A stretch of 54,985 bases of DNA, from contig JACPAX010000008.1 of assembly GCA_016180585.1 (NCBI GenBank), positions 1 through 54,985 of the forward strand, given 5' to 3'. A program made the translations under genes and the position numbers. This DNA comes from Candidatus Omnitrophota bacterium. GTDB lineage: Bacteria > Omnitrophota > Gorgyraeia > 2-02-FULL-51-18. A model generated the notes under the pieces. The model ran no database searches and was not told the origin of the DNA. It worked only from the letters and a program-made list of their open reading frames with translations. Shown piece after piece: positions 3,218 to 54,985 of the stretch. The stretch's first letter is position 1. Each line of letters opens with the position of its first letter.

Positions 3218-4253
3218 AAAGATCCTGGACGCGGGGGATCCTGCAAATCTTGAACTGGCCTCGGAAAAGATCAGGACGGGAGGCGTGGTCGCTTTCCCGA
3301 CCGAGACCGTTTATGGCCTCGGGGCCGATGTTTTCAACAAAGAGGCGGTGTGCCGGGTCTACGAAATCAAAAAGAGACCGTCGTTCGACCCGCTGATCGT
3401 CCACGTCTCGTCATCCGATGAGGCCCTCAGGCTCTGGCGTGAGATCCCTTCCGTCGCGTTGACGCTCATGAAAAAATTTTGGCCGGGTCCGCTGACGCTC
3501 GTGCTCCCAAAAAAACACGCGGTGCCGGATATCGTCACGGCGGGTCTTGACACCGTCGCGGTGCGCATGCCGAAGCACCCGGCCGCGCTTGAGCTGATCC
3601 GGAAATCCGGGACGCCGGTCGCGGCCCCGAGCGCCAACCGTTTCGGCCACGCCTCCCCGACGACGGCCGAGGCGGTTTATGAGGAATTGGGAGAGGGGCC
3701 GGATTTGATTTTGGACGGGGGGTCTACGCCCGTCGGCGTGGAATCCACCGTGCTCAAGGTCGAGAAAAAATCGGGGTTTCTCCTGAGGCCCGGGGGAATC
3801 GCCCTGGAAGAACTCGAGAATTTCCTGAGGGTCAGGACGGTTTCCGACGGCGGGGATGTCTCCCGGTCCCCCGGCCGGATGGAAAGCCACTACGCGATTG
3901 CGACCCCCCTGCATCTGGCCGCGCAACCGCTCGGCCGGTGTCTGGAGGCGCTCGAAGGTTTTTGCGAAAGCCGGCCTGCCGTCGGACGGCCCAAGCTCGG
4001 TCTCCTGTCTTTCGGGGACCCGGAGTCTCCCGCCGGCCTTTTTCAGGCGGTCGAGGCGCTCAGCGCGAAGAAAGACCTCCGTGAGGCGGCCGCAAAGCTC
4101 TTTCAAGCGATGCGAAAACTTGATAAAATGGGCCTCGATTTGATCCTGGCCATGCCGGTCCCGGAAAAGGGCCTGGGTCTTGCCATCATGGATCGTTTGC
4201 GGAAGGCCTCGGGGGTGGACAGCCTCATGGAATTTTTAAACGGATGGAAATGA
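3207..4253 (+). CDS. tsaC: L-threonylcarbamoyladenylate synthase (Sua5/YwlC/TsaC family, long form)
   Basis: YrdC-domain motifs VVAFPTETVYGLGAD, SFDPLIVHV and APSANRFG, plus a C-terminal Sua5-like extension. I chose the ATG at 3207 rather than the ORF-track start at 3105. Confidence 0.9.
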   Translation: MPDKKILDAGDPANLELASEKIRTGGVVAFPTETVYGLGADVFNKEAVCRVYEIKKRPSFDPLIVHVSSSDEALRLWREIPSVALTLMKKFWPGPLTLVLPKKHAVPDIVTAGLDTVAVRMPKHPAALELIRKSGTPVAAPSANRFGHASPTTAEAVYEELGEGPDLILDGGSTPVGVESTVLKVEKKSGFLLRPGGIALEELENFLRVRTVSDGGDVSRSPGRMESHYAIATPLHLAAQPLGRCLEALEGFCESRPAVGRPKLGLLSFGDPESPAGLFQAVEALSAKKDLREAAAKLFQAMRKLDKMGLDLILAMPVPEKGLGLAIMDRLRKASGVDSLMEFLNGWK

Positions 4254-5185
4254 GCGCGGCCGTCAGGGCGAAAAACGCCGAGACCGTGTGGGAGACCCAT
4301 CTGCCGCTCCCGCTCTTGAGTCGCGGAAAGGTGCGCGACATCTACTCGGCCGGAGACGACAAGCTTCTGATCGTCACGACGGACAGGCTCAGCGCGTTTG
4401 ACGTCGTGCTGCCCAATCCGATCCCCGTCAAAGGCAAGGTCCTCAACCAGATCTCTCTTTTTTGGTTCCGGAGATTTAAGCGCCTGGTCCCCAATCATCT
4501 GGTGACCTCCGAGGTCGGCCGGATGGGATTTGACCGCGATTTTCTGAAACGGCACGCCAAGATCCTTGAGGGCAGGTCGGCGCTCGTCCACCGAGCGCGG
4601 CCGCTGTCGGTGGAATGCGTCGTCCGCGGTTTCCTGGCCGGCTCCGGGTGGAAGGATTACCAGAAAACCGGCGGCGTCTGCGGACACGCGCTTCCTGCCG
4701 GGCTCGGGCAGTGCGGCGAGCTGCCTCGGCCGATTTTCACGCCGGCCACCAAGGCGACGACGGGCCACGATATCAATATCGATTTTGACGAAACGGTGAA
4801 GCGCGAAGGCAAAAAAATCGCCGCCAAGATACGGGACCTGTCGATCCGCCTTTACAGGGAAGGGGTCCGGTACGCCAGGGCGCGCGGGATCCTCATCGCG
4901 GACACCAAATTTGAATTCGGCCTCCTGGACGGCAGGCTCATTTTAATCGACGAGGTGCTGACGCCCGACAGCTCGCGTTTTTGGCCGGTGGAGAAGTACC
5001 GCCCCGGACAGGACCAACCCAGCCTCGACAAGCAGATCGTCAGGAATTATCTTTTGGGAATCCGGTGGAACCAAACGCCGCCGGCGCCTGAATTGCCGGC
5101 CGAGATTGTCCGAAAGACCTCGCGAGCCTACCAAGACGTCTACAAGCGTCTGACCGGAAAAAACTTATCGAGGGCGCCGGGATGA
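4244..5185 (+). CDS. purC: Phosphoribosylaminoimidazole-succinocarboxamide (SAICAR) synthase
   Basis: 313 aa with SAICAR synthetase motifs GKVRDIY, TDRLSAFD and LIADTKFEFG. Confidence 0.93.
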   Translation: MEMSAAVRAKNAETVWETHLPLPLLSRGKVRDIYSAGDDKLLIVTTDRLSAFDVVLPNPIPVKGKVLNQISLFWFRRFKRLVPNHLVTSEVGRMGFDRDFLKRHAKILEGRSALVHRARPLSVECVVRGFLAGSGWKDYQKTGGVCGHALPAGLGQCGELPRPIFTPATKATTGHDINIDFDETVKREGKKIAAKIRDLSIRLYREGVRYARARGILIADTKFEFGLLDGRLILIDEVLTPDSSRFWPVEKYRPGQDQPSLDKQIVRNYLLGIRWNQTPPAPELPAEIVRKTSRAYQDVYKRLTGKNLSRAPG

Positions 5186-5766
5186 CCCTAACCCCCTCAA
5201 CGATGATGCCGCTTGGATCGACGGCCCCTGATTTCGAGCTGCCGGACGTCGTCAGCGGAAAAAACGTCTCGCTCGCCACGTTCAAGAGCAAAAAAGCGCT
5301 TCTGATTCTTTTTATCTGTCGTCACTGCCCCTACGTCCGGCATCTCCAGGGGGATCTCGCGCAGATCGGTTTGGACTACCGTTTTAAGGACATCGGGATT
5401 ATCGCGATCAGCTCGAATGACGCCCAAAGCCATCCGGAGGATTCGCCGGAGAGCCTCAAGGAAATGGCGGCGGCCCTCGGTTTTACCTTTCCGTTCTGCT
5501 ATGACGAGACCCAGCAGGTGGCCAAAAATTATCACGCGGCGTGCACGCCGGATTTTTTCCTCTTTGACAAGAAACGCACGTTGGTCTACCGCGGCCAGTT
5601 TGACGACAGCCGGCCGGACAGCGGGCGCCCCGTCACGGGGCGTGATTTGAGGCAGGCGATCGACGCGGCGCTCGCCGACGAGCCGGTGTCCCGGATCCAA
5701 AAACCAAGCATGGGCTGCAATATCAAATGGAAGCCCGGCAATGAGCCGGACTATTTCAAAAGCTGA
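5182..5766 (+). CDS. Thioredoxin-fold thiol-disulfide oxidoreductase (AhpC/TSA-like)
   Basis: 194 aa. CxxC motif (CRHC) in a thioredoxin-like context (APDFELPDV..GKNVSL..KALLILF). Confidence 0.8.
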   Translation: MTLTPSTMMPLGSTAPDFELPDVVSGKNVSLATFKSKKALLILFICRHCPYVRHLQGDLAQIGLDYRFKDIGIIAISSNDAQSHPEDSPESLKEMAAALGFTFPFCYDETQQVAKNYHAACTPDFFLFDKKRTLVYRGQFDDSRPDSGRPVTGRDLRQAIDAALADEPVSRIQKPSMGCNIKWKPGNEPDYFKS

Positions 5767-5777
5767 AGGGGGAGCGG

Positions 5778-6161
5778 ATGGTCTTCAAAAAAATAAGCGA
5801 TCTTTTGTGCGAGATAGGGGCGACGTTGCTCAAGGACTACCAGTCGAAGGCCGTGGACCTGGCGAAGATCGAGACGGCCTCGCTTTATATCCGCGGGATC
5901 AAGGCATTACGCGAGCATTTCATCGCGGTCGTGACGCTCGTTTTCAGCTTGCTTCTCTTGGCCTTCGCGGTGATTCTTATCCCGCTGGCGCTCGTCCTCT
6001 GCATGGACTGGACGGCCGGCGCCAAGGTGTCCGCGCTCGGCGTGCTGTCGGTTTTTTACATCGGGATCCCCTGGGTGGTGGTCCGCCGTTTTCTCTCCGA
6101 AAAAACCTGGATGAGACTCTCCAAGTCCGACGAGCTCCTGGAAAAAGTCGTCGGCCGCTGA
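5778..6161 (+). CDS. Hypothetical membrane protein
   Basis: 127-aa ORF with two hydrophobic helices. Backbone-like GC. No recognised domain. Confidence 0.5.
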   Translation: MVFKKISDLLCEIGATLLKDYQSKAVDLAKIETASLYIRGIKALREHFIAVVTLVFSLLLLAFAVILIPLALVLCMDWTAGAKVSALGVLSVFYIGIPWVVVRRFLSEKTWMRLSKSDELLEKVVGR

Positions 6162-11840: not shown

Positions 11841-12659
11841 ATGATGAGAAACCAAGAGCAGGGCTCGCGTGATGACATGATTTTCGACATCGTGGTGAGG
11901 TCGTATATCGAGACGGCCGAGCCGGTGGGCTCAAGGACGATCTCGCGCCGGTACGGAGTGGGTCTGTCTCCTGCCTCCATCCGTAATGTGATGGCGGACC
12001 TTGAAGAACAGGGCCTCTTGTCCCAGCCGCACACTTCGGCGGGGCGGGTTCCCACGGACAGGGGCTACCGTTATTGGGTGGATTCCCTGATGCGACCGGA
12101 GGAGCTGGCGGCCAAAGAGAAAGAATGGATTGGCCGCGAGCTTCAGGAGGCCAAGACGATCGAGGACCTCGCCGAAAAAGTGTCCAAGATTATTTCGCAA
12201 ATCACCGGCAACGCGGCGCTCTTTTATCTGAGAAACCTGAAAAGAGTGTCCTTTTTGTCGTATCTTCTGGATGAGTTGGTGGAGGCCCACCGCCTCGTTG
12301 ATTTTCTGGAGGAGGAGCCCGAGCTCTACATCGAGGGAGCGGTGCGGGTTTTTCAACAGCCGGAGTTTCAGGATTTGGAAAAAATGAGGAGTCTTTTGCA
12401 GGCCTTTGACGAGGAAGGCGATTTCCTGCAGGTCTTCGTCAAAGACCTTGAAGAGGAGGGGGTGCATGTCCACATCGGGAGCGAAAACGAGGGGGACCGC
12501 CTCGAAGACGTGAGCCTTGTGGTCAAGGATTGTTATCTGGGCCGGATGCCGATCGGAGGGGTCGCAGTGGTCGGTCCGACGCGGATGAAATATCCCAAGG
12601 TGATGTCCGTCGTGGATTACGTGGCGGACAGTCTGACGGAGATTGCGCGCCGTTTTTAA
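11841..12659 (+). CDS. hrcA: Heat-inducible transcription repressor HrcA
   Basis: N-terminal winged-helix signature IVRSYIETAEPVGSRTISRRYGVGLSPASIRNVMADLEEQGLL. SD GAGGAGGGG upstream of the ATG at 11841. Confidence 0.92.
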   Translation: MMRNQEQGSRDDMIFDIVVRSYIETAEPVGSRTISRRYGVGLSPASIRNVMADLEEQGLLSQPHTSAGRVPTDRGYRYWVDSLMRPEELAAKEKEWIGRELQEAKTIEDLAEKVSKIISQITGNAALFYLRNLKRVSFLSYLLDELVEAHRLVDFLEEEPELYIEGAVRVFQQPEFQDLEKMRSLLQAFDEEGDFLQVFVKDLEEEGVHVHIGSENEGDRLEDVSLVVKDCYLGRMPIGGVAVVGPTRMKYPKVMSVVDYVADSLTEIARRF

Positions 12660-12669
12660 AAAGGTGGTT

Positions 12670-13161
12670 ATGGCCGAAGAGGACAAGGAAAAAAAAGAAG
12701 AAAAGACGGACGTCGCCGCGGAGCAGATGCTTCGCATTCGAGCCGATTTCGAAAACACGAAGAAGAGGCTTGAACGCGAGAAAGAGAGCGCGATCAGGTT
12801 CGCTAACGAGCGCTTGCTCGCGGAGATTCTGCCGATCGTCGATAATTTTGACCGGGCGATGACGAGTCTGTCCGAAGGTCACGACCCGGAGAAGGTCAAG
12901 CAAGGGCTCAAGATCGCGCAGGACGAGTTGCATCAGGTCCTTGAGGAACACGGCGTCGAGGTGGTGAAGAGCGTCGGAGAGTCGTTTGACCCCCACGTTC
13001 ATGAGGCCGTGGCGACGGTGCCGTCGGCCGGCGCCCGGGACGGCACGATTGTGGACGAGATCCAAAGAGGCTATCTTTTGAACGGGAGGCTCTTGCGTCC
13101 GTCCCGCGTGCGCATCGCGCAGAATCAACCAAAAAATTCAGGGGAAGAGGAGGAGACATAA
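12670..13161 (+). CDS. grpE: Nucleotide exchange factor GrpE
   Basis: [18 protein letters not shown] motif and a C-terminal beta-domain (FDPHVHEAV...[14 protein letters not shown]). Confidence 0.92.
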
Positions 13162-40988: not shown

Positions 40989-42098
40989 ATGAAAGTGGCA
41001 ACAGAAAATCCTTTGAAGCAGGCGCTGGGCTGCGGCCAAAGCATCTGGTATGACGGGCTTGTGTCCCACCGGGAGTTTGAGGACATGATCCGCGAGGACG
41101 GGATTCGCGGCGCCACCACCAACCCCACGATTTTTGAGAAATCGCTTTCCGGCGGGGAGTACGACAAAGCGCTTTCCGGCCTCCTGGGGGCGCGTCCGGC
41201 CGAAGAAATTTACCGGACGATCGCCGCCAAGGCCGTGCAGGACGTGGCGGACCTTTTTCTTCCGGTGGCTGACCGGACCCGCGGCGAAGACGGTTTTGTG
41301 TCGATCGAGGTTAGCCCGCTTCTGGCCCACGACACCCAGGCCACCTTAAGCGAGGCGAGGGAGCTGTGGCGTCTTGTCGGCCGTCAGAATGTCATGATCA
41401 AGGTTCCGGCGACGCGCGAGGGGATCCCGGCGGTGCGCGCGCTCATCGCCGACGGGATCCACGTGAACATCACGCTGATTTTTTCGGTGAAGAGGTACCG
41501 CGAGGTGATCGAGGCCTATCTCGGCGGGTTGGAGGAGCGGGTTCGCGGCGGCAAGGCCGTGTCCGGCGTCGCTTCGGTCGCGAGCTTTTTTGTCAGCCGG
41601 GTCGACACGGCCGTCGACAAAATTCTCGAGGAGAAGATCGCCAAGGCCGCTCAGGGCCCTGAAAAAGAGGCGCTTGAGTCGCTTCTTGGAAAGGCCGCGA
41701 TCGCCAACTCAAAGGTCGCCTATGACGTCTTCGAGAAAATATTTTTCGGTCCCCGCTTCGAAAAGCTCGGAGCCAAAAACGCGCGGCTTCAGCGGCCGCT
41801 TTGGGCCAGCACCGGCACGAAGAACCCGCGTTACGGCGACGTGGTTTACGTCGAGGCGCTGATGGGCCCGCACACGGTGGACACCGTCCCGCCGGCGACG
41901 CTCGCCGCTTTTCGGGATCACGGCGTCGCCCGGGCGCGCCTGAAAGACAACGTGCCCGGCGCCTATGAGACGCTGGAGAAGATAGCGGCCGCCGGGATCA
42001 ATCTTGAAAAAACGACACAGGAACTGGAAGACGCGGGGGTCAAGTCCTTCGGCGACTCTTACAGGAAAATCATCGATTTGATTCGGACAAGGAAATGA
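40989..42098 (+). CDS. tal: Transaldolase (long form)
   Basis: GQSIWYDGL, GATTNPTIF and VMIKVPAT motifs. Confidence 0.92.
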   Translation: MKVATENPLKQALGCGQSIWYDGLVSHREFEDMIREDGIRGATTNPTIFEKSLSGGEYDKALSGLLGARPAEEIYRTIAAKAVQDVADLFLPVADRTRGEDGFVSIEVSPLLAHDTQATLSEARELWRLVGRQNVMIKVPATREGIPAVRALIADGIHVNITLIFSVKRYREVIEAYLGGLEERVRGGKAVSGVASVASFFVSRVDTAVDKILEEKIAKAAQGPEKEALESLLGKAAIANSKVAYDVFEKIFFGPRFEKLGAKNARLQRPLWASTGTKNPRYGDVVYVEALMGPHTVDTVPPATLAAFRDHGVARARLKDNVPGAYETLEKIAAAGINLEKTTQELEDAGVKSFGDSYRKIIDLIRTRK

Positions 42099-43759
42099 AC
42101 GGGGGCCGTTACCGCCCGAAAGAATCCTGGGGCGATTATCAAGAGAGCCTGAGCGAGTGGACGGACCGCGCGGCCAGGCAGTCTTTGATCCCGAGGATTT
42201 GGGCCAAAGACGCCTCTCTGTGGACCGGCGATCCGGAAGGGCAGCGGGAGGTCAGGGCCCGGCTCGGATGGCTTACCGCTCCCGGCCAGTCCAGGGAATT
42301 GGCCGGCGACATCCAATCGGTGGTCTCGGAGGTCAGGAAGGCCGGTTTTTCGCATGTCGTGCTGCTGGGCATGGGCGGTTCAAGCCTGGCCCCGGCGGTG
42401 TTTCAAAGCATCTTCGGCCGCGCGGAAGGTTATCCGGAGCTTATCGTTCTCGACAGCACCGATCCTCTGCAGGTCAAAGACACCGAGCAAAGAGCAGAGA
42501 TCGAAAAGACCCTTTTTATCGTATCCAGCAAATCGGGAGGCACGATAGAACTTCTTTCGTTTTTTAAATATTTCTACGACAAAGTGCGGAGCCGCAAAGG
42601 CGACGAGGCCGGGAGCCATTTCATCGCGATCACGGACCCGGGGACGCCGCTCGAGACGCTCGCCAAGACACACCGCTTCCGAAAAGTTTTTTTGGCCCCG
42701 GCGGACGTCGGGGGGCGTTTTTCCGCATTGACCTATTTCGGTCTCTTGCCCGCCGGCCTCATCGGCGTGGACCTGGACAAAGTCCTCGAGGCCGCGGGAG
42801 ACATGGCAGGCGCGGTGTCTCCCTCCGTGGCCGTCCGCGAGAACGCGGCCCTTTCCCTGGGCATCGGGATGGCGGTGCTCGCGGAGGAAGGCCGGGACAA
42901 GCTGACGCTCCTGACCTCTCCGTCGCTGGAATCTTTCGCCGATTGGGCCGAGCAGCTTGTCGCCGAAAGCAGCGGCAAGGAGGGCGCGGGAATCGTCCCC
43001 GTGGTGCGGGAGCCGATCGGCCCCGTCGAGTCCTACGGACACGACCGTTTTTTCGTGGCGCTTCTTTCGGACGGGGAGAAAACCGCCGAAGACACCGCGC
43101 TTGAGAAAAAGCTCGCGGAGCTGGCGGAGGCGGGACACCCTGTTCTGCGTTACCGGCTCAGGGAAAAATGGGATTTGGGCGCGGAATTTTTCCGATGGGA
43201 GATGGCGACCGCCGTCGCGTGCGCGCTTCTCAAAATCAACGCGTTTGATCAGCCGGACGTGCAGTCCGCGAAGGAGCGAACCAAAGCGCTTCTCGGGGCG
43301 TCGGCGGCCGGCAGAGAAATTCCCGTGAAGATTTCCGAAAGAGACCTGGGGACTTTTTGGGAAAACGCCGAGGAGGGGGACTACGCGGCGATCCTGGCTT
43401 TTCTGCCGGACCGGCCCGCGCTGCGGAAGGCCCTGACGGACCTTCAACGGGAGATCAGAGACCGCCGGAAGATGGCGGTTACCGTCGGGCTGGGGCCGCG
43501 TTACCTGCATTCCACCGGGCAACTCCACAAGGGCGGGCCCAACAAGGGCGTGTTTTTGCTGGTGACCACGGAGCACGCGGAGGACCTGCCGGTGCCCGGG
43601 GAGCCGTACGGCTTTGCGCGCCTGGAACTGGCGCAGGCGATGGGGGAGATGGAGGCGCTCGAGGAAAAGGGCCGGTGGGTTTTTCATTACCGGCTAAAAG
43701 AGGCCTCCGGGCAGGAGCTGGATCGGCTCGCCGGCGATGTCCGGGTGGCCCTGGGATGA
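42095..43759 (+). CDS. pgi: Glucose-6-phosphate isomerase
   Basis: SIS-domain motifs LLGMGGSSLAP and VSSKSGGTIE. 4-nt overlap with tal. Confidence 0.88.
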   Translation: MNGGRYRPKESWGDYQESLSEWTDRAARQSLIPRIWAKDASLWTGDPEGQREVRARLGWLTAPGQSRELAGDIQSVVSEVRKAGFSHVVLLGMGGSSLAPAVFQSIFGRAEGYPELIVLDSTDPLQVKDTEQRAEIEKTLFIVSSKSGGTIELLSFFKYFYDKVRSRKGDEAGSHFIAITDPGTPLETLAKTHRFRKVFLAPADVGGRFSALTYFGLLPAGLIGVDLDKVLEAAGDMAGAVSPSVAVRENAALSLGIGMAVLAEEGRDKLTLLTSPSLESFADWAEQLVAESSGKEGAGIVPVVREPIGPVESYGHDRFFVALLSDGEKTAEDTALEKKLAELAEAGHPVLRYRLREKWDLGAEFFRWEMATAVACALLKINAFDQPDVQSAKERTKALLGASAAGREIPVKISERDLGTFWENAEEGDYAAILAFLPDRPALRKALTDLQREIRDRRKMAVTVGLGPRYLHSTGQLHKGGPNKGVFLLVTTEHAEDLPVPGEPYGFARLELAQAMGEMEALEEKGRWVFHYRLKEASGQELDRLAGDVRVALG

Positions 43760-44304
43760 AATTCACTCCGGCTGCCGGGCTTCCGGGAGTATGGGTGGTT
43801 GAGCCCGACGTCCGTCGGGACGCGCGCGGGTTTTTCTTTGAAGCCTACAGCGCCCGTTTTTTTAAGGAGAACGGGATCGGAGAAGTCTTCGTCCAGGACA
43901 ATCACAGCCTCTCCCGGCGGGGTGTCCTGCGCGGTCTGCACTTTCAGGTCGAGCCGCATGCCCAGGCGAAGCTTGTGAGCGTCCTGCGCGGCAGCGCGTT
44001 TGACGTCGTGGTGGACATCCGCAAAGAATCCGGCACGTTCGGCCGCTACGCGACCGAGGTTCTCTCCGCCGAAAACCGGAAGACGGTGTATATCCCCAAG
44101 GGGTTCGCCCACGGGTTTCTCGCGCTCGAGGACGACACCCATTTTCTTTACAAGGTCTCGGATTTTTATTCTCCCGCCGGCCAGCGGGGCATTTTGTGGA
44201 ACGACCCGCAGATCGGGATCCCCTGGCCGGCGATCGAAGGCGGTTACCTCCTCTCCGAGAAAGACAAGAAAAATCAGACCCTTGAGACTTATCGACAATC
44301 CTGA
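43756..44304 (+). CDS. rfbC: dTDP-4-dehydrorhamnose 3,5-epimerase
   Basis: D.RGFF.E, NHS....VLRGLHFQ and KLV.V..G...DV.VD.R motifs. The ATG at 43756 overlaps the pgi stop. Confidence 0.92.
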   Translation: MKFTPAAGLPGVWVVEPDVRRDARGFFFEAYSARFFKENGIGEVFVQDNHSLSRRGVLRGLHFQVEPHAQAKLVSVLRGSAFDVVVDIRKESGTFGRYATEVLSAENRKTVYIPKGFAHGFLALEDDTHFLYKVSDFYSPAGQRGILWNDPQIGIPWPAIEGGYLLSEKDKKNQTLETYRQS

Positions 44305-45436
44305 ACTTCTGGACCGGGCGCTGGAGGTCCTGTCGGCCTGCGACTCGGCCGCGGTGGACACCGAGGCGGACAGCCTGCACCACTACGCCGAAAAACTCTG
44401 TCTGGTGCAGATCAGCACGCCGGACGACGATCTGGTGATCGATCCCCTCGCCGGATTGGACCTGGGCCCGCTCTGCCGTCTCCTCGAAGAAAAAAAACTC
44501 GTCTTTCACGGCGCGGATTTTGACATCCGCATGCTGAAGAAATCTTCCGGTTTCGAGCCGAAAGAGATTTTTGACACGCTGCTGGCGGCGCAGCTTCTCG
44601 GCTATGAGAAACAGGGCCTCGCGGACCTGGTCGCGCGGCACTACGACGTGACGCTCTCCAAGGCAAACCAGAAAGCGGATTGGTCCCGACGTCCGCTCGG
44701 CGACGATCTTCTGAAGTATGCGGCCAACGACACGCATTATCTTCTGCCGCTTCGCGCCAAGCTTCGGGGGGAGCTTGAGGCGCTCGGCCGCGAGGGGTGG
44801 CACCGGCAAAGCTGCCACAGGCTTCGGGAGTCGCTCGCGAACTGGGAGGAAAATCCCGTTGCGGAAGAAGACGAGTGGCGGATCAAGGGGAGCAAGGCCC
44901 TCAAGGGCAAGGCGCTCGTGATTCTCAAGGCGCTGTGGACCTGGAGAGAGGAAGAAGCCAAAAAGAAGGACAGGCCCCGCTTCAAGATCGTGAACGGAGA
45001 GTATCTCATCGACGTCGCGCGGTGGTCTTCGGAAAACCCGGGAAGGGACATCGCGCTCTGGCCGGACGCGCCACGAAATATCCGGGGGACCTACCGCGAG
45101 GTGATCAACGCGGTAATCAAACAATCGGAGCATCTTCCGCCGGTCGAACCGTATAAGAGGACTTTCTCGGGGCCAAAAAAAAGGTGGGGCAACCGCGAAA
45201 GCGAAAGATTTCAGGCCCTGAGAGAGGCGAGGGAAAAAATCGCCGCCGAACTCAAGATCCGTCCGAGTCTTCTGGCGACCAACGCGGTGCTCGAGCTCGT
45301 TTCGTCCGATCCCCCGATCGACCGGCGCGCGATGAAGGACTCCGGATTTTTCATGCCGTGGCAGGCCGAGGTCCTCGCCGGGCGATTTCTCGAAATCCTC
45401 CATGCCTCCCGGCAGGCAGGTCACGGGGCCCCTTGA
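44282..45436 (+). CDS. rnd: Ribonuclease D (DEDDy 3'-5' exonuclease plus HRDC)
   Basis: AVDTEADSL, ADFDIRML and YAANDTHYL exonuclease motifs. In-frame TTG at 44282 proposed as the start (uncertain). Confidence 0.85.
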   Translation: MRLIDNPELLDRALEVLSACDSAAVDTEADSLHHYAEKLCLVQISTPDDDLVIDPLAGLDLGPLCRLLEEKKLVFHGADFDIRMLKKSSGFEPKEIFDTLLAAQLLGYEKQGLADLVARHYDVTLSKANQKADWSRRPLGDDLLKYAANDTHYLLPLRAKLRGELEALGREGWHRQSCHRLRESLANWEENPVAEEDEWRIKGSKALKGKALVILKALWTWREEEAKKKDRPRFKIVNGEYLIDVARWSSENPGRDIALWPDAPRNIRGTYREVINAVIKQSEHLPPVEPYKRTFSGPKKRWGNRESERFQALREAREKIAAELKIRPSLLATNAVLELVSSDPPIDRRAMKDSGFFMPWQAEVLAGRFLEILHASRQAGHGAP

Positions 45437-45492: not shown

Positions 45493-47745
45493 ATGGCCGA
45501 CGCGTTTCTGCTGCATCAGCAATCCCCTCAATTAAGAACTCCCCAAAAGACATATTACGCCCACAGCCGCGAAGGCAAACCCGTCAAAGAATGGCATTTG
45601 CTGAAAGACCATTTGGAAAACACGGCGCGAAAAGCCTCGGATTTTTCCAAGGATTTCAATGCCGCCGAATGGGCGTATCTAGCCGGCCTGTGGCATGACT
45701 TGGGGAAGTATTCGGAGGAGTTTCAAAATCGGCTGTCCGAAGCCAACGGCAATGATGCCCACATTGAAAAGCCGGGACGCGTTGATCATTCAACCGCAGG
45801 CGCGCAGTATGCCGCCAAGATGTTGGGGGACAAAGGGAGAATCATTGCATATACGATAGCAGGGCATCACGCGGGTCTCCCGAATGGGGAAGACAATAAA
45901 GATTCTTGTTTGTCATCTCGCCTAAAAAAGTGGATACCGGATTATTCTTGTGGAATAAGCGAACTGCCCTTGGCTCTGAATTCTCCCGGTCTTCCTTTTG
46001 CCTGTGGTGGGAGCATTTCAAATCAGCAATTTGCATTCCGACTTTCCGTGTTTATCAGGATGATTTTCTCCGCTTTGGTGGATGCTGATTTTCTTGATAC
46101 GGAAGAATTCGCGGGAGCTGAAAAGTGCTCATGGAGGAAAGGGTATCCCGGTCTACTCACCCTAAATCAACGGCTGGAAACTTACCTGGAGCGGTTTTCA
46201 GGACATTCCAATGGACATCCTGTAACGCGGATTCGCATGGAGGTGTTGGGACATTGCCGCGAGGCTTATGATTGGCCTTCGGGATTATTTTCTTTGACAG
46301 TGCCGACGGGCGGGGGTAAGACGCTCTCGTCTTTATCGTTTGCAATGAGACATGCATTAAAGTACGGAAAAAAGCGCATCATTTACGTTATTCCATACAC
46401 AAGCATTATCGAACAAAATGCTGCTGTATTTCGTGAGGCCCTTGGTGACGATGCGGTTTTGGAACATCACAGCAATTTTGAACCGGAGGAAGAGGACCAC
46501 CGGTCGCGGCTCGCTTCCGAAAATTGGGATGCCCCTATCGTGGTGACGACAAATGTGCAATTTTTTGAATCTCTTTTTGCCTGCAGAACTTCCCAATGCC
46601 GTAAGCTACACAATATCGCCAATAGTGTGGTGATACTGGATGAAGCACAAATGCTTCCGACTGAACTTTTAAAACCTTGTTTGGAAATTCTTAAAGAACT
46701 GTCAAATGTCTATAAAACCTCTATCGTATTGTGTACAGCCACTCAGCCGGCATTATCTACCACGGAAACTTTTAAGAATGGCCTCGATGGCGTTCGCGAG
46801 ATTATCCCTAATCCAGGAGAGCTGTACGATACGATGAAACGGGTGGAAATAAAAAACTTATCTACCATCACCGATGATGATCTGGTCAAAAAAGTCGTCT
46901 CTTGCGACCAAGTGCTTTGCATTGTGAATACGCGTCGGCACGCCCGGGTGGTTTTTGAAAAAATGAGAGCGCTTGTCAACGGACAAGGATGCTTCCATTT
47001 GAGCGCGCTTATGTGCCCTTTACACAGGACGCGGAAATTGGGAGAGATTAAAAAAGCCCTCAGAGAGGGAAAGTTGTGCCGTGTGATTAGTACGCAACTG
47101 GTTGAAGCGGGCGTGGACATTGATTTTCCCGTTGTATACCGTTCTATCGCGGGCGTTGACTCTATCGCCCAAGCCGCCGGACGATGCAACAGAGAGGGGC
47201 GGCTCGACAAGGGGGAAGTTTTTGTATTTATGCCGCAGGAGGGACTGCCTCGCGGACATTTCAGGCAGGCCGCGCAGACGGCCGAGTCCATCAGCCGGCG
47301 GCACCAGGATATCTTGTCATTAAAGGCCGTTGAAGAATATTTCCGCGAGTTGTATTGGATAAAAGGCGAAAAGGATCTTGATGCTTACGGGATTTTGCCT
47401 GCTTTGACCGAGGATGCGGCAAGGGGGAATTTGCCGTTTCGGGAAGTGGCCGAAAAATTCAAGATTATTAAGGACGGAATGGTGTCTGTGATTATTCCTT
47501 GGAAGGAAGAGGCGGATGTTTTAATTCAAGAGTTAAATTTCGTGAAGTATCCGGCAAAGTTTGCCCGTCAACTGCAGAAGTTTACCGTGCAGGTGTATCC
47601 GCAAGCCTTTGCCATCTTAAGACCAGCGCTTGAATGTATCCGTGATCAATATTATGTGTTGCGCAACATGGATATTTATCGGGATGATATCGGACTCTGC
47701 CCGGAAGACCCCGCATTTCATAAAATTGAAAGCTTGATCTGTTAA
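45493..47745 (+). CDS. cas3: CRISPR-associated nuclease/helicase Cas3 (HD domain plus SF2 helicase)
   Basis: HD motifs (AHS...H, LWHDLGKY, DHSTAG) and helicase motifs TVPTGGGKT and ILDEAQ. First gene of the cas operon. Confidence 0.95.
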   Translation: MADAFLLHQQSPQLRTPQKTYYAHSREGKPVKEWHLLKDHLENTARKASDFSKDFNAAEWAYLAGLWHDLGKYSEEFQNRLSEANGNDAHIEKPGRVDHSTAGAQYAAKMLGDKGRIIAYTIAGHHAGLPNGEDNKDSCLSSRLKKWIPDYSCGISELPLALNSPGLPFACGGSISNQQFAFRLSVFIRMIFSALVDADFLDTEEFAGAEKCSWRKGYPGLLTLNQRLETYLERFSGHSNGHPVTRIRMEVLGHCREAYDWPSGLFSLTVPTGGGKTLSSLSFAMRHALKYGKKRIIYVIPYTSIIEQNAAVFREALGDDAVLEHHSNFEPEEEDHRSRLASENWDAPIVVTTNVQFFESLFACRTSQCRKLHNIANSVVILDEAQMLPTELLKPCLEILKELSNVYKTSIVLCTATQPALSTTETFKNGLDGVREIIPNPGELYDTMKRVEIKNLSTITDDDLVKKVVSCDQVLCIVNTRRHARVVFEKMRALVNGQGCFHLSALMCPLHRTRKLGEIKKALREGKLCRVISTQLVEAGVDIDFPVVYRSIAGVDSIAQAAGRCNREGRLDKGEVFVFMPQEGLPRGHFRQAAQTAESISRRHQDILSLKAVEEYFRELYWIKGEKDLDAYGILPALTEDAARGNLPFREVAEKFKIIKDGMVSVIIPWKEEADVLIQELNFVKYPAKFARQLQKFTVQVYPQAFAILRPALECIRDQYYVLRNMDIYRDDIGLCPEDPAFHKIESLIC

Positions 47746-47758
47746 CACGGGGGTGTTT

Positions 47759-48412
47759 ATGTCCTATGGTGTGAAATTAAAAGTATGGGGTAATTACGCC
47801 TGTTTTACTCGTCCGGAAATGAAAGTGGAGAGGGTTAGTTATGATGTCATGACGCCTTCAGCGGCCCGGGGCATTCTGGAAGCGATTTACTGGAAGCCTG
47901 AAATTTTCTGGGTGATCGAACGAATCATTGTATTGAATCCCATTCGATTCACAAATATCCGCCGCAACGAGTTGGCAAGCAAGGTTAAGTTAGGTAATGT
48001 GAAAAAAGCAATGGGTGACGGGAAATCCCCCCTTGAAATTTTTATCGAAGAAGATCGGCAACAAAGAGCCGCAATGATTTTGCGTGATGTGGCGTACGTT
48101 ATCGAAGCCAAATTTGAATTTACCGCAAACAGCGATAATAATTCAGGCAAGCATAAAGAAATGTTTGACCGGCGCGCTGGGCAAGGGCAATGTTTCCACC
48201 GGCCTTATTTGGGCTGTCGGGAGTTTCCTGCCAATTTTGAATTAATCAATGGGGTATTGCCGGAATCCAGGTTCAAGGGCAAACAGGATTTGGGTTGGAT
48301 GCTTCATGACATTGATTTCAAAAATAATATGGAAGCCAAGTTCTTTAAAGCTGTCATGAATAATGGGGCCGTAGAAATTCCGCTCTTTCACCAAGCGGAG
48401 GTTTTGTTATGA
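47759..48412 (+). CDS. cas5: Cas5d/Cas5c, the type I-C pre-crRNA-processing Cascade subunit
   Basis: The YGVKLKVWGNYACFTRPEMKVERVSYDVMTPSAARGILEAIYWKPE signature is typical of Cas5d. The KH dipeptide (SGKHKE) is consistent with the catalytic Lys-His. Confidence 0.93.
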   Translation: MSYGVKLKVWGNYACFTRPEMKVERVSYDVMTPSAARGILEAIYWKPEIFWVIERIIVLNPIRFTNIRRNELASKVKLGNVKKAMGDGKSPLEIFIEEDRQQRAAMILRDVAYVIEAKFEFTANSDNNSGKHKEMFDRRAGQGQCFHRPYLGCREFPANFELINGVLPESRFKGKQDLGWMLHDIDFKNNMEAKFFKAVMNNGAVEIPLFHQAEVLL

Positions 48413-50103
48413 TTCTTCAGGCATTGAATCAATATTATGAAAGATTATCTAAGGATGAAAGCGCAACTATACCTTTATTTGGATTTAGTGAAGAAAAGAT
48501 ATCCTTCGTGCTTGTGGTCAGTCCGCAAGGAAAATTGCTGCAAACGCGTGATATAAGACGACAGATTAAAAACAAGCTTGTGCCGCAGTTAATGAATGTC
48601 CCCGAAGCAGTAATTCGTACTTCCGGGAAAAAATCGAATTTCATATGGGATAAGACCCAATATATTTTAGGAGCGGGTATCGAAAATAACAAAGACGAAT
48701 TACAAAAATGTTTCGGAATTTTTCAAAAGCTTCAATGTGAAATTGGGAATGAAATTGACGACGAAGGGATGATGGCGGTATTAAAGTTTTTAGATCATTG
48801 GGCGCCTAATAACGCTTATAAAATTCCAAATTGGGAGGAGGTTGCCGGTAAAAACTTAATTTTCCAATTGGACGGCCAAAGACAATATATTCATGAAAGG
48901 CCTAAAATCAGACAAGCTTGGCTGAAATTTCACAATCGGAATCGATCCTCAGTAATTGGCACATGCCTGGTTACGGGGGAGCGACGTTCAATCGCCCAGC
49001 TACATTCACCTTTGGGAGGATTTGCAGACCAGGTCCGGTTAGTGTCTTTCAATAAAGACTCTTTTATTTCTTATGGTAAGGAACAGAATGTCAATGCGCC
49101 TGTCGGCGAAGAGCCAGCTTTCAATTATGCGACTTCGCTGAATTACCTATTAAACTTTGATAGCCGTCAAAAAATTCAAATAGCAGATTCAACGGTAGTG
49201 TTTTGGGCAGAGCGACGATCACCAATGGAAGGTTTTTTAGGTAGAATTGTTGATTCTAAAGATGATAGTGGTGAAACCCCGGAAATAAAGCATTTTTTAG
49301 AAGCTGTGCGAGAGGGGAAAAAGCCGAAAAATTTGGATGGCGCGAATAAATTTTATATTCTAGGGCTTTCTCCCAATGTTTCTCGACTAGCCGTTCGGTT
49401 TTGGTTTGTAAGCACAGTTGACGATATAGCTTTGAAAATCGGCCAGCATTTTCAGGATTTATCGGTGATCAAAAGTTTTGACAGCGATAAAGAATTTCCC
49501 GGGATTTGGTGGTTATTAAAAGAAACAGTAAGGGACTCAAAGGATATTCCGCCCTTGTTGGTTGGAGCTATGATGCGCTCTATCTTGACGGGCGCGGCAT
49601 ATCCTCAAACATTATTATCGTCCGTGATCGGCCGTATTCGGGCGGATGGAAACGTGAATTATTACCGCGCGGCGATTATCAAAGCCTGTTTGGTCAGAAA
49701 ATATCGAATCATGAATCAACCGATGGAGGTGGGTATGACGCTCAATAAAGATTCAACCAGTGCGGCTTATCGTTTGGGAAGGCTTTTTGCTGTTCTGGAG
49801 AAAGCTCAGAAAGATGCCATTCCGGCCGCCAATGCCACGATTAAAGACCGTTTTTACGGTTCGGCGTCGGCAACGCCCAAGGTGGTGTTTCCACTGCTTT
49901 TGCGCTTGGCACAGCATCACATTCAAAAGTCCAATTTTCGGATTTCATTGGAAAAGGATATCCAGGAAATTGTGTCAGGGGTAAAAGAATTTCCGGCACA
50001 CTTATCCTTGGACGAGCAAGGCCTTTTCGCGCTTGGATATTATCACCAAAAAAAGGACATTTACACAAAATCTGAAAAGAAAGAGGAGGCCAGTCATGTC
50101 TAA
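48409..50103 (+). CDS. cas8c: Cas8c (Csd1), the type I-C large subunit
   Basis: [14 protein letters not shown]-terminus typical of Csd1. Positioned between cas5d and cas7. Confidence 0.9.
49735..50103 (+). CDS. cas11: Predicted internally translated small subunit Cas11c (in frame, nested in the 3' end of cas8c)
   Basis: Strong SD GGAGGTG (49725-49731) lies 3 nt before the in-frame ATG at 49735. The product would be 122 aa. Confidence 0.55.
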
Positions 50104-50977
50104 ATCGATCCAGAATCGCTATGAATTTGTTTATCTGTTTGATGTTGAAAACGGCAATCCAAACGGGGACCCCGATGCCGGCAATATGCCACGCATTGAT
50201 CCGGAGACAAGCTATGGAATCGTTACCGTTGTTTGTTTAAAGCGAAAGATTCGTAATTTTGTTGAAATTGCAAAAGAGAACAAACCTCCTTTTGAAATTT
50301 ATGTTAAGGAGAAAGCGGTCTTGAACAGGCAACACGAAAGAGCATATTTGGCACATGAATTAAAATCAGTATCGAAAAAACTACCTAAAAAGGATGAAGA
50401 TGCTAAAAAGGTTATCGGATGGATGTGCAAGAATTTTTATGATGTGCGCACTTTCGGCGCAGTTATGATGACTGAAGTTAACACGGGTCAAGTTCGGGGA
50501 CCCGTCCAGTTAAATTTCGGACGCAGCATTGAACCGATTGTTCCGCTTGAAGTGAGTATTACCAGAATGGCTGTAACAAAGGAAGAGGATTTAGAAAAAG
50601 AAAGAACGATGGGGAAAAAGCATATTGTTCCTTATGCCCTCTATCGCACCGAAGGGTATATTTCGGCACATTTAGCGCAAAAAACTGGGTTTAGCGAGGA
50701 TGACTTAAGGTTATTGTGGGAAGCGTTGAACAATATGTTTGATCACGATCATTCCGCGGCTCGGGGGAAAATGAATGCCCGCCGGCTGATCGTCTTCAAG
50801 CATGAGTCAATGTTGGGCAATGCCCCTGCGTATAAATTATTTGACCGGGTGAAAGTTCAACGCGCTACTGATGTATCCAAACCGGCTCGTTCATTCCAGG
50901 ACTATAAAATTGAAGTGGACGAAAAGAAGCTATCCTCAGGCGTAAGCCTTTTGGAAGACGATCTGATAAACAGTTAA
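50096..50977 (+). CDS. cas7: Cas7c (Csd2), the type I-C backbone subunit
   Basis: The [26 protein letters not shown] signature is typical of Csd2. Its ATG overlaps the cas8c stop by 8 nt. Confidence 0.93.
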
Positions 50978-50992
50978 GGAAAGGAATCATGC

Positions 50993-51412
50993 ATGAAAAT
51001 CGACTACTCGGCTTTTGAAAAAGCCATAGACCAGCTGGAGAAGAGCAGGGGGTTTTTGCGTTCGGAGATGGCCGCCGGGAACAAGGATCTCTACGAGCAA
51101 TTCCGGGCGGCCTCGATCAAAGCCTTTGAATACACCTATGAGCTGGCTTTGAAAATGATCAGGCGCCAACTGGATCAGATCGCCATCAATCCTGAAGAAC
51201 TGCGGGAAATGGCATTTATGGATTTCATCCGGACGGCTCATGAGGCGGGACTCGTGCGCGAGGTGCCGGCATTCAAAGTCTATCGCGAAAAAAGAAACAT
51301 CACCGCCCATACTTACGATGCGGACAAGGCCGAGGAAATTTTGCCGGTGTTGGACCCTTTTCTTCGCGACGCGCGGTATATTCTCGGGGAACTGAAGAAG
51401 AGAAATTCATGA
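50993..51412 (+). CDS. HEPN-domain protein of the HI0074 family (nucleotidyltransferase substrate-binding protein)
   Basis: 139 aa, all-helical. Rx4H motif RNITAH near the C-terminus. Family-typical AFEYTYELALKMIRR segment. Confidence 0.85.
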   Translation: MKIDYSAFEKAIDQLEKSRGFLRSEMAAGNKDLYEQFRAASIKAFEYTYELALKMIRRQLDQIAINPEELREMAFMDFIRTAHEAGLVREVPAFKVYREKRNITAHTYDADKAEEILPVLDPFLRDARYILGELKKRNS

Positions 51413-51732
51413 GCGTCTTTGACGTTCTCCCGCGCGATCTGGACACTGTCCGGAGGATTCTCGCGCGAGGTGTTCCGGAATATGACGTGTACGCGTTCGG
51501 TTCCCGCGTGGCGGGAAAAGCAAGAAAAGCCTCGGACTTGGATTTGGCCGTGATGACCGACGAGCCTCTGCCGGCCCTGCGCGTTGCGGATCTGAGGGAG
51601 GCCTTCAGCGAATCGGACCTGCCGTTTAAGGTGGACCTCGTGGACTGGGCGGGCGCGAAGGAAGATTTCAAAAAACTCATCCGGCAGAACAGGCTTAAAA
51701 TCCAGTCTGGAAAGAAACAAGCTCAGATCTGA
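51409..51732 (+). CDS. Minimal nucleotidyltransferase (MNT) domain protein, partner of the HEPN gene
   Basis: GSRVAGKARKASDLDLAV matches the pol-beta NTase motif G[GS]x9-13DxD. 4-nt overlap with the HEPN gene, and its stop overlaps the cas4 ATG. Confidence 0.85.
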   Translation: MSVFDVLPRDLDTVRRILARGVPEYDVYAFGSRVAGKARKASDLDLAVMTDEPLPALRVADLREAFSESDLPFKVDLVDWAGAKEDFKKLIRQNRLKIQSGKKQAQI

Positions 51733-52376
51733 TGGCCGCGACTGCGTTTTCCGAAGACGAACTGCTTTATCTCTCGGCGCTTCAGCACCTGGTTTTTTGC
51801 GAACGGCAGTGCGCGCTGATTCATCTCGAAGGGCAGTGGAACGAAAATTATCTGACGGCCCTTGGGCGCGTCATGCACGAAAAGAAGGTCGACCAGCCGG
51901 CACAGGAAAGCCGGGGCGATCTAAAAATTGAATACGGGATGCCGCTCCGGTCGTTAAGACTCGGACTGTCCGGAAAAGCGGATGCGGTGGAGTTTCACAG
52001 GCAACCGGACGGCTCGTGGCTGCCGTTTCCCGTTGAGCATAAACTGGGCAAACCCAAGATCGATGATTCGGACAGGATTCAATTGTGCGCTCAGGCCATT
52101 TGTTTCGAAGAGATGCTGAGTGTTCAGGTACCTCGCGGAGCGCTTTTTTACGGACGTCCGAGAAGGCGTGAGGAGGTGGCGTTTGACGAAGCGCTTCGTC
52201 AAAAAACGCAGGAAACGGCCGGGCGCCTGCATGCCCTGATAAAGGCAGGAATAACTCCCATCGCGGTTTATGAAAAAAAATGCGACGCTTGCTCACTCGT
52301 TGATCTTTGCCTCCCGAAACTGGCGAATAGATCAAAATCCGTCCACAGTTACCTAAGGGAAATCATGGGTTCGTGA
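51732..52376 (+). CDS. cas4: Cas4 (RecB-like exonuclease with an Fe-S cluster)
   Basis: YLSALQHLVFCERQCALIH N-terminus, a PD-(D/E)xK core (DAVEF...VEHKLGK) and the C-terminal Cys cluster CDACSLVDLC. Confidence 0.92.
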   Translation: MAATAFSEDELLYLSALQHLVFCERQCALIHLEGQWNENYLTALGRVMHEKKVDQPAQESRGDLKIEYGMPLRSLRLGLSGKADAVEFHRQPDGSWLPFPVEHKLGKPKIDDSDRIQLCAQAICFEEMLSVQVPRGALFYGRPRRREEVAFDEALRQKTQETAGRLHALIKAGITPIAVYEKKCDACSLVDLCLPKLANRSKSVHSYLREIMGS

Positions 52377-52380
52377 GCTT

Positions 52381-53412
52381 ATGAAAAAGCACTTAAATAC
52401 CATTTACGTGACGACCCAGAACAGCTACCTGCACAAGGACGGGGAGACGGTGGTCGTCAAGGCGGATGACGAGATTAAACTGCGTCTGCCGATCCACACG
52501 ATCAAAGGGATCGTTTGTTTCGGCCAGGTCTCCTGCAGTCCGTATCTGATGGGTTTTTGCGCCGAAAACGACGTTTCGATAAGTTTTCTGACCGATTATG
52601 GGCGCTTTCTGGCGAAGGTGGAGGGGCCGGTTTCAGGAAACGTCTTGCTTCGCCGCAGGCAATACCGTCTGGCGGATGATCAGGCATTTTCCGCGAAAAT
52701 GGCGCAATATTTTCTTGCGGGGAAAATCGCCAATGCCCGAACCTCTTTTTTGAGGGTGATGCGGGACCATCCGGAAAAAGGCGTCGCTGGGACGCTCCAG
52801 TCGGCCGCCACGAGACTGGGGAGTTGCATGGAGAAGCTCAAGACGGTGTCCGATCTGGAAATCCTGCGCGGGATCGAGGGCGAGGCCGCCCAGACGTATT
52901 TCACCGTTTTTAATGAGCTCGTCTTCGCTCAAAAAGACGAGTTCATGTTTAAGGACCGAAACAGGCGGCCTCCGCTGGATCGCGTTAATTGTCTGCTCTC
53001 TTTTTTTTACACGCTTGTGATGCATGACACGCGGTCTGCCCTGGAATCCGTCGGGCTTGATCCCGCAGTTGGATTTTTGCATCGCGACCGCCCCGGTCGT
53101 CCCAGTCTGGCACTTGATCTGATGGAAGAGTTCAGGGTTTTTCTCGCGGACCGGATCGTCCTTTCGTTGATCAACCTCAAGCAGATTACGGGAAGCCAGT
53201 TCAAGCGGTCCGAGTCCGGAGCGTTTACCATGAATGATGAGGCCAGGAAAACAGTTCTGACGGCCTATCAAGAACGTAAGCAGGAGGAAATCGTGCATCC
53301 CTTTCTGGGAGAAAAAGTCACCGTGGGTCTGCTCTTCCATCTTCAAGCGTTGTTGTTGGCTCGCTTCTTACGGGGAGATCTTGACGCGTATCCACCGTTT
53401 GTGTGGAGGTAA
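52381..53412 (+). CDS. cas1: Cas1 integrase (type I-C)
   Basis: 343 aa. Motifs GIEGEAA..YF, R.RRPP.D..N..LSF.Y and GFLH......SLALDLMEEFR. Confidence 0.95.
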   Translation: MKKHLNTIYVTTQNSYLHKDGETVVVKADDEIKLRLPIHTIKGIVCFGQVSCSPYLMGFCAENDVSISFLTDYGRFLAKVEGPVSGNVLLRRRQYRLADDQAFSAKMAQYFLAGKIANARTSFLRVMRDHPEKGVAGTLQSAATRLGSCMEKLKTVSDLEILRGIEGEAAQTYFTVFNELVFAQKDEFMFKDRNRRPPLDRVNCLLSFFYTLVMHDTRSALESVGLDPAVGFLHRDRPGRPSLALDLMEEFRVFLADRIVLSLINLKQITGSQFKRSESGAFTMNDEARKTVLTAYQERKQEEIVHPFLGEKVTVGLLFHLQALLLARFLRGDLDAYPPFVWR

Positions 53413-53418
53413 ATCGCT

Positions 53419-53712
53419 ATGATGGTTCTGGTCAGCTATGACGTTTCGACAAAGACCCCTGTGGGACGACGGCGGCTTCGAAAAGTGGCAGAGGCATGCC
53501 TGGATTACGGGCAGAGGGCGCAGAATTCTGTTTTTGAATGTCCGGTAGACCCGGCTCAGTGGGTTCTCTTGAAAAATGAGCTATTGAATGTCTATGAACC
53601 AAAAGAAGACAGTTTGCGGTTCTATTTTTTGGGAAGCAAATGGCAAAACAAGGTAGAGCATTTCGGGGTCAAGAAAGTGCTCGACCTGGAAAAAGACTCT
53701 TTAGTTGTCTGA
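53419..53712 (+). CDS. cas2: Cas2
   Basis: 97 aa. MMVLVSYDVST......RRLRKVA..C.DYGQR.QNSVFEC signature. Confidence 0.95.
   Translation: MMVLVSYDVSTKTPVGRRRLRKVAEACLDYGQRAQNSVFECPVDPAQWVLLKNELLNVYEPKEDSLRFYFLGSKWQNKVEHFGVKKVLDLEKDSLVV

Positions 53713-53889: not shown

Positions 53890-54985
<1,096 letters not shown>

Follow-up and report, generated by a model that had tools for sequence, protein, structure and literature searches.

A HEPN-MNT gene pair within a type I-C cas operon

Contig JACPAX010000008.1 of a Candidatus Omnitrophota bacterium (assembly GCA_016180585.1, positions 1 to 54,985, the whole stretch analysed here and called the window) carries on its forward strand a type I-C CRISPR-Cas locus with two extra genes between cas7 and cas4. 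The first (50993-51412, + strand) encodes a 139-aa HEPN protein, a putative RNase toxin, and the second (51409-51732, +) a 107-aa minimal nucleotidyltransferase (MNT), a putative AMPylating antitoxin. HEPN is separated from cas7 by a 15-nt spacer (50978-50992, +), most of which is a purine-rich, Shine-Dalgarno-like stretch, GGAAAGGA, at 50978-50985. The two open reading frames (ORFs) share the 4 nt ATGA (51409-51412), and the MNT stop codon (TGA, 51730-51732) has one base, the A, in common with the ATG of cas4 (51732-51734), giving a TGATG stop/start overlap at 51730-51734 (+). The gene pair, the 15-nt gap, the 4-nt overlap and the TGATG junction had all been described in an earlier reading of this DNA (the initial annotation), and all its coordinates were confirmed.

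The pair is co-oriented with the cas genes, and its junctions leave no space for a promoter or terminator. A scan for a promoter or terminator of its own, using sigma-70-type consensus in this Omnitrophota host, gave matches at the level of shuffled sequence and none bracketing the pair. The pair is thus physically part of the operon, as the initial annotation had it. Such tight packing supports co-transcription of HEPN and MNT on the cas mRNA, which we infer, and is no evidence of a CRISPR-specific function. Direct and inverted repeats around the pair were limited to short, chance-level matches, and a transposon-like insertion was rejected. A CreA-like RNA antitoxin derived from a CRISPR repeat was rejected as well, since no repeat-like sequence was found in the window beyond the array at up to 3 mismatches.

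The surrounding locus is a complete type I-C set by Pfam and NCBIfam, all on the + strand. The effector genes are cas3 (45493-47745; HD nuclease and helicase; Pfam Cas3_HD, DEAD and Cas3-like_C_2), cas5 of the I-C type (47753-48412; PF09704, E 2e-45), cas8c (Csd1; 48409-50103; PF09709, E 2.5e-174) and cas7 (Csd2; 50033-50977; PF05107, E 2e-111; TIGR02589, 390 bits). The cas7 coordinates count from a TTG at 50033, but translation more likely starts at the ATG at 50096; the stop is the TAA at 50975-50977. The adaptation genes follow the pair: cas4 (51732-52376; TIGR00372, 131 bits), cas1 (52381-53412; PF01867, E 8e-106) and cas2 (53419-53712; PF09827, E 1e-25). A repeat search placed a CRISPR array of 17 identical 32-nt repeats, GTCGCGCCCCGCGCGGGCGCGTGGATTGAAAC, at 53890-54977; it may extend past the window, whose end at 54985 lies just 8 nt beyond the last repeat.

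Both proteins resemble the HI0074/HI0073 pair and are intact

The HEPN protein matches PF08780 (E 4e-24; 85.3 bits, cutoff 31.8), TIGR01987 (68.1 bits, cutoff 55.8) and the structure of HI0074 (PDB 1JOG; E 2e-22), and MNT matches the structure of HI0073 (PDB 1NO5; E 9e-29, residues 4-104) as well as PF18765 (E 1.5e-12) and PF01909, both above cutoff. The Rx4HxY motif of HEPN reads RNITAHTY (residues 101-108, nt 51293-51316; R101, H106 and Y108). In an alignment with 27 relatives R101, N102, T104, H106 and Y108 are present and invariant, and the protein keeps all 18 of the 18 family-invariant residues. In MNT the GSx10DxD motif (GS-x10-DLD) spans residues 31-45 (nt 51499-51543), with G31, S32, D43 and D45 present and invariant in 8 relatives. 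These profile matches bear out the initial assignment of the two genes to an HI0074-type HEPN with an intact Rx4H motif and a minimal nucleotidyltransferase. Against the nearest relatives the ratio of nonsynonymous to synonymous substitution rates (dN/dS) is 0.03-0.09 for HEPN and 0.07-0.10 for MNT, with dS saturated. Neither gene is disrupted, and, subject to that saturation, both show purifying selection.

By profile and motif, then, the homology of HEPN to Haemophilus HI0074 and of MNT to HI0073 is clear, and the pair belongs to a type VII-like toxin-antitoxin family that comprises 1102 clusters at 50% identity and is also plasmid-borne. MNT scores 48.7 bits against the NCBIfam MntA equivalog NF047752, under its cutoff of 60, and HEPN is assigned to PF08780 and not to DUF86/HepT (PF01934). 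The pair, presumably type VII-like in its action, is therefore placed in the HI0074/HI0073 branch and is not HepT/MntA proper. A PADLOC scan returned no model for HEPN; MNT matched PDC-S09 (E 8e-9) and the N-terminus of the Specificity_I model (E 2e-18), which itself has an N-terminal MNT domain.

The window proteins are direct sequence homologues of the Haemophilus influenzae pair (PDB 1JOG, 1NO5), with the same sizes and motifs, including the short MNT form of about 107-114 aa common to HI0073 and the window MNT. The Haemophilus pair's own biological function is not established, and the window pair differs from it by its cas operon context. The nearest experimentally studied homologue is the type VII toxin-antitoxin pair lpg2920/lpg2921 of Legionella pneumophila, in which HEPN is an RNase neutralised by MNT through AMPylation of the motif tyrosine (PMC11586414). 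Its HEPN, also 139 aa long, falls in the same branch of the superfamily and has an RX4HXY motif with an AMP-accepting tyrosine, and its genes overlap, as in the window. It is, however, a stand-alone module with only distant single-sequence similarity (PDB 8XDJ against the window HEPN: profile E 1.5e-10, single-sequence E 1e-3). The HepT/MntA systems (Shewanella SO_3166/SO_3165; Aphanizomenon HEPN-MNT) follow the same logic, with a GSx10DxD nucleotidyltransferase neutralising a HEPN RNase through (oligo)AMPylation, and share the Rx4HxY motif. They differ in having a DUF86 (PF01934) HEPN and a longer MNT whose gene comes first; the window has PF08780, HEPN first and a short MNT.

The initial annotation had presented the gene order as reversed. 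The order is indeed opposite to that of HepT/MntA, and runs counter to the general rule given by Anantharaman et al., but it is not unusual: HEPN comes first, with 4-11-nt overlaps, in every relative examined, on metagenomic contigs, in metagenome-assembled genomes (MAGs) and on plasmids of Acetobacter, Zymomonas, Gemmobacter and Legionella (loci L002, L003, L005, L089, L091, L093 and L102, L103, L104, L105, L106 among them; L numbers denote individual loci throughout). HEPN-first order is a trait of the HI0074/HI0073 family, independent of the insertion into the CRISPR locus.

Related I-C loci lack the pair

The window Cas proteins, HEPN and MNT were mapped onto the 80 loci encoding the closest Cas7 relatives (62-75% identity), and a HEPN or MNT homologue was found in none of these I-C loci (0/80). 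A second sample comprised the 5 loci with the closest Cas4 proteins, and here too HEPN-MNT was absent (0/5), with something else upstream of cas4 in each. In L097 (Cas4 84%, Cas1 91%) it is a Bro-N-family gene (2-361) with its stop overlapping the cas4 ATG; in L098 (Cas4 76%) the order is cas7, Bro-N (3131-4000), cas4; L099 and L100 (Cas4 74%, Cas7 up to 86%) have a 310-nt gap (L099 3691-4000) in which only a decayed Bro-N remnant of about 200 nt is left; and L101 (Cas4 78%) has a YhcG PDDEXK nuclease gene before cas4. The association of the pair with I-C operons is thus neither recurrent nor demonstrably non-random. The initial annotation had called the pair an integral, hard-wired member of the operon, and had said that this would be refuted if closely related I-C loci never carry the pair and it occurs as a generic mobile toxin-antitoxin cassette at random sites. 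The pair's absence from both samples, together with the position of its nearest relatives at unrelated housekeeping sites, agrees with that outcome, and integral membership is not supported.

The closest HEPN relatives (76-86% identity) are each accompanied by their own MNT, co-oriented, and the sites have nothing in common: after mreCD, PBP2 and rodA (L005); upstream of a ROK-family gene, with a 4-nt overlap (L002); in an Omnitrophica MAG, with transporter genes on both sides (L003); flanked by uvrC and a gene for an RF-type release factor (L089); and overlapping greA by 4 nt (L091). All sampled relatives of the pair lie outside CRISPR loci. Phage carriage of the pair found no support, with no match in IMG/VR patterns or INPHARED.

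In a subgroup with a 145-aa HEPN (69-72% identity, more than 23 contigs), the HEPN gene is set between hsdM and hsdS in type I restriction-modification operons, and MNT forms the N-terminal part of an in-frame fusion with HsdS (L093 3425-5056, 543 aa; also L094-L096). In L093-L096 the fusion gene comes directly after hsdM and an HI0074-type HEPN gene; the antitoxin is thus tethered physically to a restriction complex. On Acetobacter plasmids the order hsdM, HEPN, MNT, hsdS, hsdR is held together by 1-, 4-, 1- and 4-nt overlaps, as seamlessly as in the cas operon of the window.

Three junctions of I-C operons are permissive

Distances between genes were measured in the 80 loci, and a junction was counted as expanded when it reached at least 250 nt. 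Expansion was frequent at cas3>cas5 (30/62), cas7>cas4 (22/74) and cas4>cas1 (26/66), and absent or rare at cas5>cas8c (0/75), cas8c>cas7 (0/79) and cas1>cas2 (1/61). I-C operons therefore have three permissive junctions, two of them flanking cas4 and the third at cas3|cas5. In the clade nearest to the window (L006-L023), cas7>cas4 is expanded in 13 of 18 loci; over the whole sample the median cas7>cas4 gap is 24 nt, and insert-free loci are common.

The cas7>cas4 junction is occupied by Fic (L006, L007), RhuM-Fic (L018), a four-helix-bundle protein of about 190 aa with a TIGR04258 suffix domain (L012, L013, L017, L019, L022, L034, L057) or a shorter, TIGR02436-only four-helix-bundle protein (L070), Bro-N nested in a four-helix-bundle gene (L008, L010), ParD-ParE (L047), a HigA-like helix-turn-helix gene (L011), an NYN protein, HEC-09 (L081), a glyoxalase (L074) or unassigned genes (L059, L063). 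Several of these cargo genes are frameshifted, truncated or interrupted, among them the four-helix-bundle genes of L008, L010, L012, L021 and L023. In L008 (Bro-N at 1257-1946) and L010 (7952-9068) Bro-N is flanked by N- and C-terminal four-helix-bundle fragments, and in other loci it abuts cas4. Along with the decayed Bro-N of L099 and L100, this suggests that one insert was itself inserted into and that the contents of the slot were then replaced.

Translational coupling to cas4 is shared by these unrelated occupants. The cTGATGGCC junction of the window recurs identically behind the Bro-N gene of L097, the four-helix-bundle gene ends on the cas4 start in L013 (TGATG) and L017 (TAATG), and in L098 a TAA is followed directly by the ATG of cas4. 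The stop/start overlap therefore belongs to the cas4 start region and is taken on by any occupant; in the window it falls within the variable C-terminal tail of MNT. Elsewhere the pair is packed equally tightly against greA, the ROK-family gene, hsdM and hsdS. The coupling had been taken as a mark of integral membership, a use that the Bro-N and four-helix-bundle genes of the sister loci, coupled in the same way, do not allow.

One locus, L098, has a window-like adaptation module (2096-5961; Cas4 76%, Cas1 82%) beside a very different Cas7 (31% identity), an indication that effector and adaptation modules are shuffled at the cas7|cas4 boundary.

Composition and origin of the locus

The GC content at third codon positions (GC3) is 0.40-0.50 in cas3-cas7 and 0.72-0.76 in the two host genes measured (42095-43759 and 44000-45436), and because of this difference the I-C locus was probably acquired recently by horizontal transfer. 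The closest relatives of the window cas genes come from Desulfobacterota MAGs. DnaK, by contrast, is 83-87% identical to named Omnitrophota proteins, and the only named close relative of HEPN, P0006 (83%), is from Omnitrophica; both point to an Omnitrophota host. GC3 is 0.64 in HEPN and 0.69 in MNT; the step between cas7 and HEPN (0.43 to 0.64) was dropped as proof of local recombination for being non-specific, since cas4 and cas1 have a GC3 above that of cas7 in sister loci too. A plausible course of events is that an I-C locus arrived, its slot perhaps already filled by a four-helix-bundle or Bro-N gene, and received the cassette from a local toxin-antitoxin pool; a search of the window slot for remnants of four-helix-bundle, Bro-N, Fic and YhcG genes found none.

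The pair as a probable captured cassette, and other possible roles

Since the cas7|cas4 junction is a permissive slot that collects cargo of toxin and abortive-infection type, the pair is most likely a captured autonomous cassette. We consider it rather probable that it is a mobile, self-sufficient module of a HEPN RNase and an MNT AMPylase, captured in this slot and co-expressed with the cas genes; the best reading is that of a one-off passenger, not of a built-in CRISPR part. HEPN would, by homology, be an RNase toxin, and the co-translated MNT would neutralise it by AMPylating Y108 of the Rx4HxY motif. A single capture in this lineage would have placed the cassette in the recombination-permissive slot where the effector (cas3-cas7) and adaptation (cas4-cas1-cas2) modules of a horizontally acquired I-C operon meet, and it may have displaced earlier cargo there. 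It would now travel on the cas mRNA in a translational chain of cas7, 15 nt, HEPN, ATGA, MNT, TGATG and cas4. The cassette should work without CRISPR and CRISPR without the cassette. Its benefit, if any, would be that of an embedded toxin-antitoxin or abortive-infection module, with a penalty on loss of the surrounding DNA as a side effect.

Several observations weigh against this reading. Growth arrest by the toxin, its RNase activity and its neutralisation by AMPylation are predictions from homology, for HI0074 as for the window protein. In Legionella the RNase site was mapped to a Mg site formed by Q44 and E47, and not to Rx4H (PMC11586414); at these positions the window HEPN has K43 (codon 51119-51121) and E46. 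Position 43 is a Mg-coordinating Gln in most family members and in Legionella, and Lys in the window and a subset of relatives. The I-C loci sampled numbered about 85 and the contexts of the pair about 14, and a metagenome scan with HEPN yielded just 3 loci, of which two were too short to be of use. Moreover, toxin-type cargo appears repeatedly in defence operons, including MNT fused to HsdS, which could mean functional coupling instead of hitch-hiking.

Such coupling is the substance of an alternative in which the pair is a guard, or a backup abortive-infection arm: a phage block of Cascade or of cas expression, or a host shut-off halting MNT synthesis, would free the HEPN RNase, the supply of the pair tracking cas expression through the cas transcript much as PrrC is kept latent by EcoprrI, or as in CreTA and CrePA. 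The cargo of I-C slots consists mostly of toxin and abortive-infection families that PADLOC lists as defence-embedded (Fic, PDC-S04; RhuM-Fic, PDC-S23/S05; NYN, HEC-09; MNT, PDC-S09), and other I-C slots hold AbiP2-type reverse transcriptases and Leo proteins. Many of these families also appear in a catalogue of genes nested within Hma, BREX, DISARM and type I restriction-modification operons, where 'guilt by embedding' has led to seven experimentally confirmed defence systems (10.1101/2024.01.29.577857). The HEPN-MNT family itself is nested as hsdM|HEPN|MNT|hsdS, with 1-nt and 4-nt overlaps and with MNT-HsdS fusions on many contigs, which likens it to other defence-embedded cassettes, whether in type I restriction-modification, BREX, DISARM or Hma systems, PrrC in EcoprrI or the PDC and HEC genes of PADLOC. 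The window pair, nested co-oriented between cas7 and cas4, has the attributes of a defence-embedded candidate. CreTA and CrePA also show that CRISPR-embedded toxins can guard Cascade (PMC12737573), and the window pair resembles them as a toxin module inside a type I cas locus and in the idea of guarding or stabilising CRISPR. However, CreA is an RNA resembling a crRNA and represses the toxin by way of Cascade, whereas both window components are proteins, with no fusion to a Cas protein and neither a crRNA-like antitoxin nor a repeat-like element outside the array. There is no sign of a sensor connecting the status of Cascade with HEPN, cargo in the sister loci often decays, the closest relatives of the pair adjoin housekeeping genes, and one occurrence among about 85 loci is not a conserved association. 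We regard a guard function as unlikely. An extended version, in which the pair is a protein-based guard chained to the cas transcript and the cas3|cas5, cas7|cas4 and cas4|cas1 junctions are docking slots for interchangeable abortive-infection effectors common to type I restriction-modification operons, we hold to be still less likely; if true, it would make I-C a modular, two-layer immune system.

Alternatively, the pair might be an addiction module, penalising deletions that take out the central part of the locus and thereby shielding an expensive, horizontally acquired CRISPR system from loss. The cassette does lie centrally in an operon that looks recently acquired by its GC3, in other loci the slot holds classic toxin-antitoxin genes (ParDE in L047, the HigA-like gene in L011), and CreTA is a conceptual precedent. 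Neutralisation here would, however, be covalent and enzymatic, so that post-segregational killing would require reactivation of the toxin or an unstable MNT. Exact loss of the cassette alone would be penalised no differently than at any other site, and the turnover and decay of cargo in sister loci sit poorly with durable stabilisation. Addiction is possible, as is backup abortive infection, and as the main role of the pair we judge it decidedly unlikely. That the pair is a domesticated regulator or accessory of adaptation, for instance modifying Cas4 or Cas1 or processing prespacers or crRNA, is highly improbable, for only its position directly upstream of, and translationally coupled to, cas4 favours this, and unrelated Bro-N and four-helix-bundle genes are coupled likewise, I-C loci without inserts are common, and the pair keeps all its toxin and antitoxin motifs with no derived features; the suggested regulator linking interference and adaptation accordingly gained no support.

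Read as a captured cassette, the pair is a common toxin-antitoxin family at a new address, and genes embedded in defence operons are already a known phenomenon. The more useful by-product is the pattern of slots in I-C operons, which take up toxin and abortive-infection genes from the same pool as type I restriction operons, at tightly packed junctions and in several cases with the stop codon overlapping the next start codon. CRISPR-Cas was outside the analysis of the defence-embedded survey (Payne et al. 2024 preprint, 10.1101/2024.01.29.577857), and the host operon here is of type I-C; the pattern extends 'guilt by embedding' to CRISPR-Cas and offers a cheap way of mining CRISPR loci for new defence genes. 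It also provides a concrete case in which to ask whether embedded toxins are passengers, stabilisers of their host locus or a second layer of defence upon disabling of CRISPR.

Further cargo of the I-C junctions

In Neisseria, Haemophilus and Cardiobacterium the cas4>cas1 junction holds inserts of 1-2.8 kb whose product is an AbiP2-type reverse transcriptase (PADLOC E 1.6e-196) or a PDC-S41 protein of 649 aa (L024 8839-10326, L032 8606-10090, L033 8613-10562, L064 2190-4133, L040 10394-11293). At cas3>cas5 the cargo includes LeoBC/LeoA dynamin-like GTPases, a 440-aa protein without assignment and, in L010, a 206-aa ORF that is NYN-like by eye only (L032 564-4474, L046 3067-4389, L010 3901-4521).

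The four-helix-bundle protein (TIGR02436 and TIGR04258, with a weak PF05635/Avd-like match) is the commonest occupant of cas7>cas4. It occurs in I-C loci of Desulfobacterota, Scalindua and Kiritimatiellia at 60-82% identity (L012 1683-2232, L013 7991-8569, L017 7950-8528, L019 5717-6277, L022 7993-8571, L034 7877-8443, L057 7981-8787; fragments in L008, L010, L021 and L023), and could be a genuine I-C accessory gene. The idea that it is a divergent HEPN, by which the slot would always hold a HEPN fold, was rejected (hhalign probability 0.4%). A PF05635-like protein of 190 aa is also present between MNT-HsdS and hsdR in one type I restriction-modification operon, and L013 has a second, partial copy of the four-helix-bundle gene (12609-12902), which covers the C-terminal 95 residues at 73% identity and lies some 4 kb further downstream.

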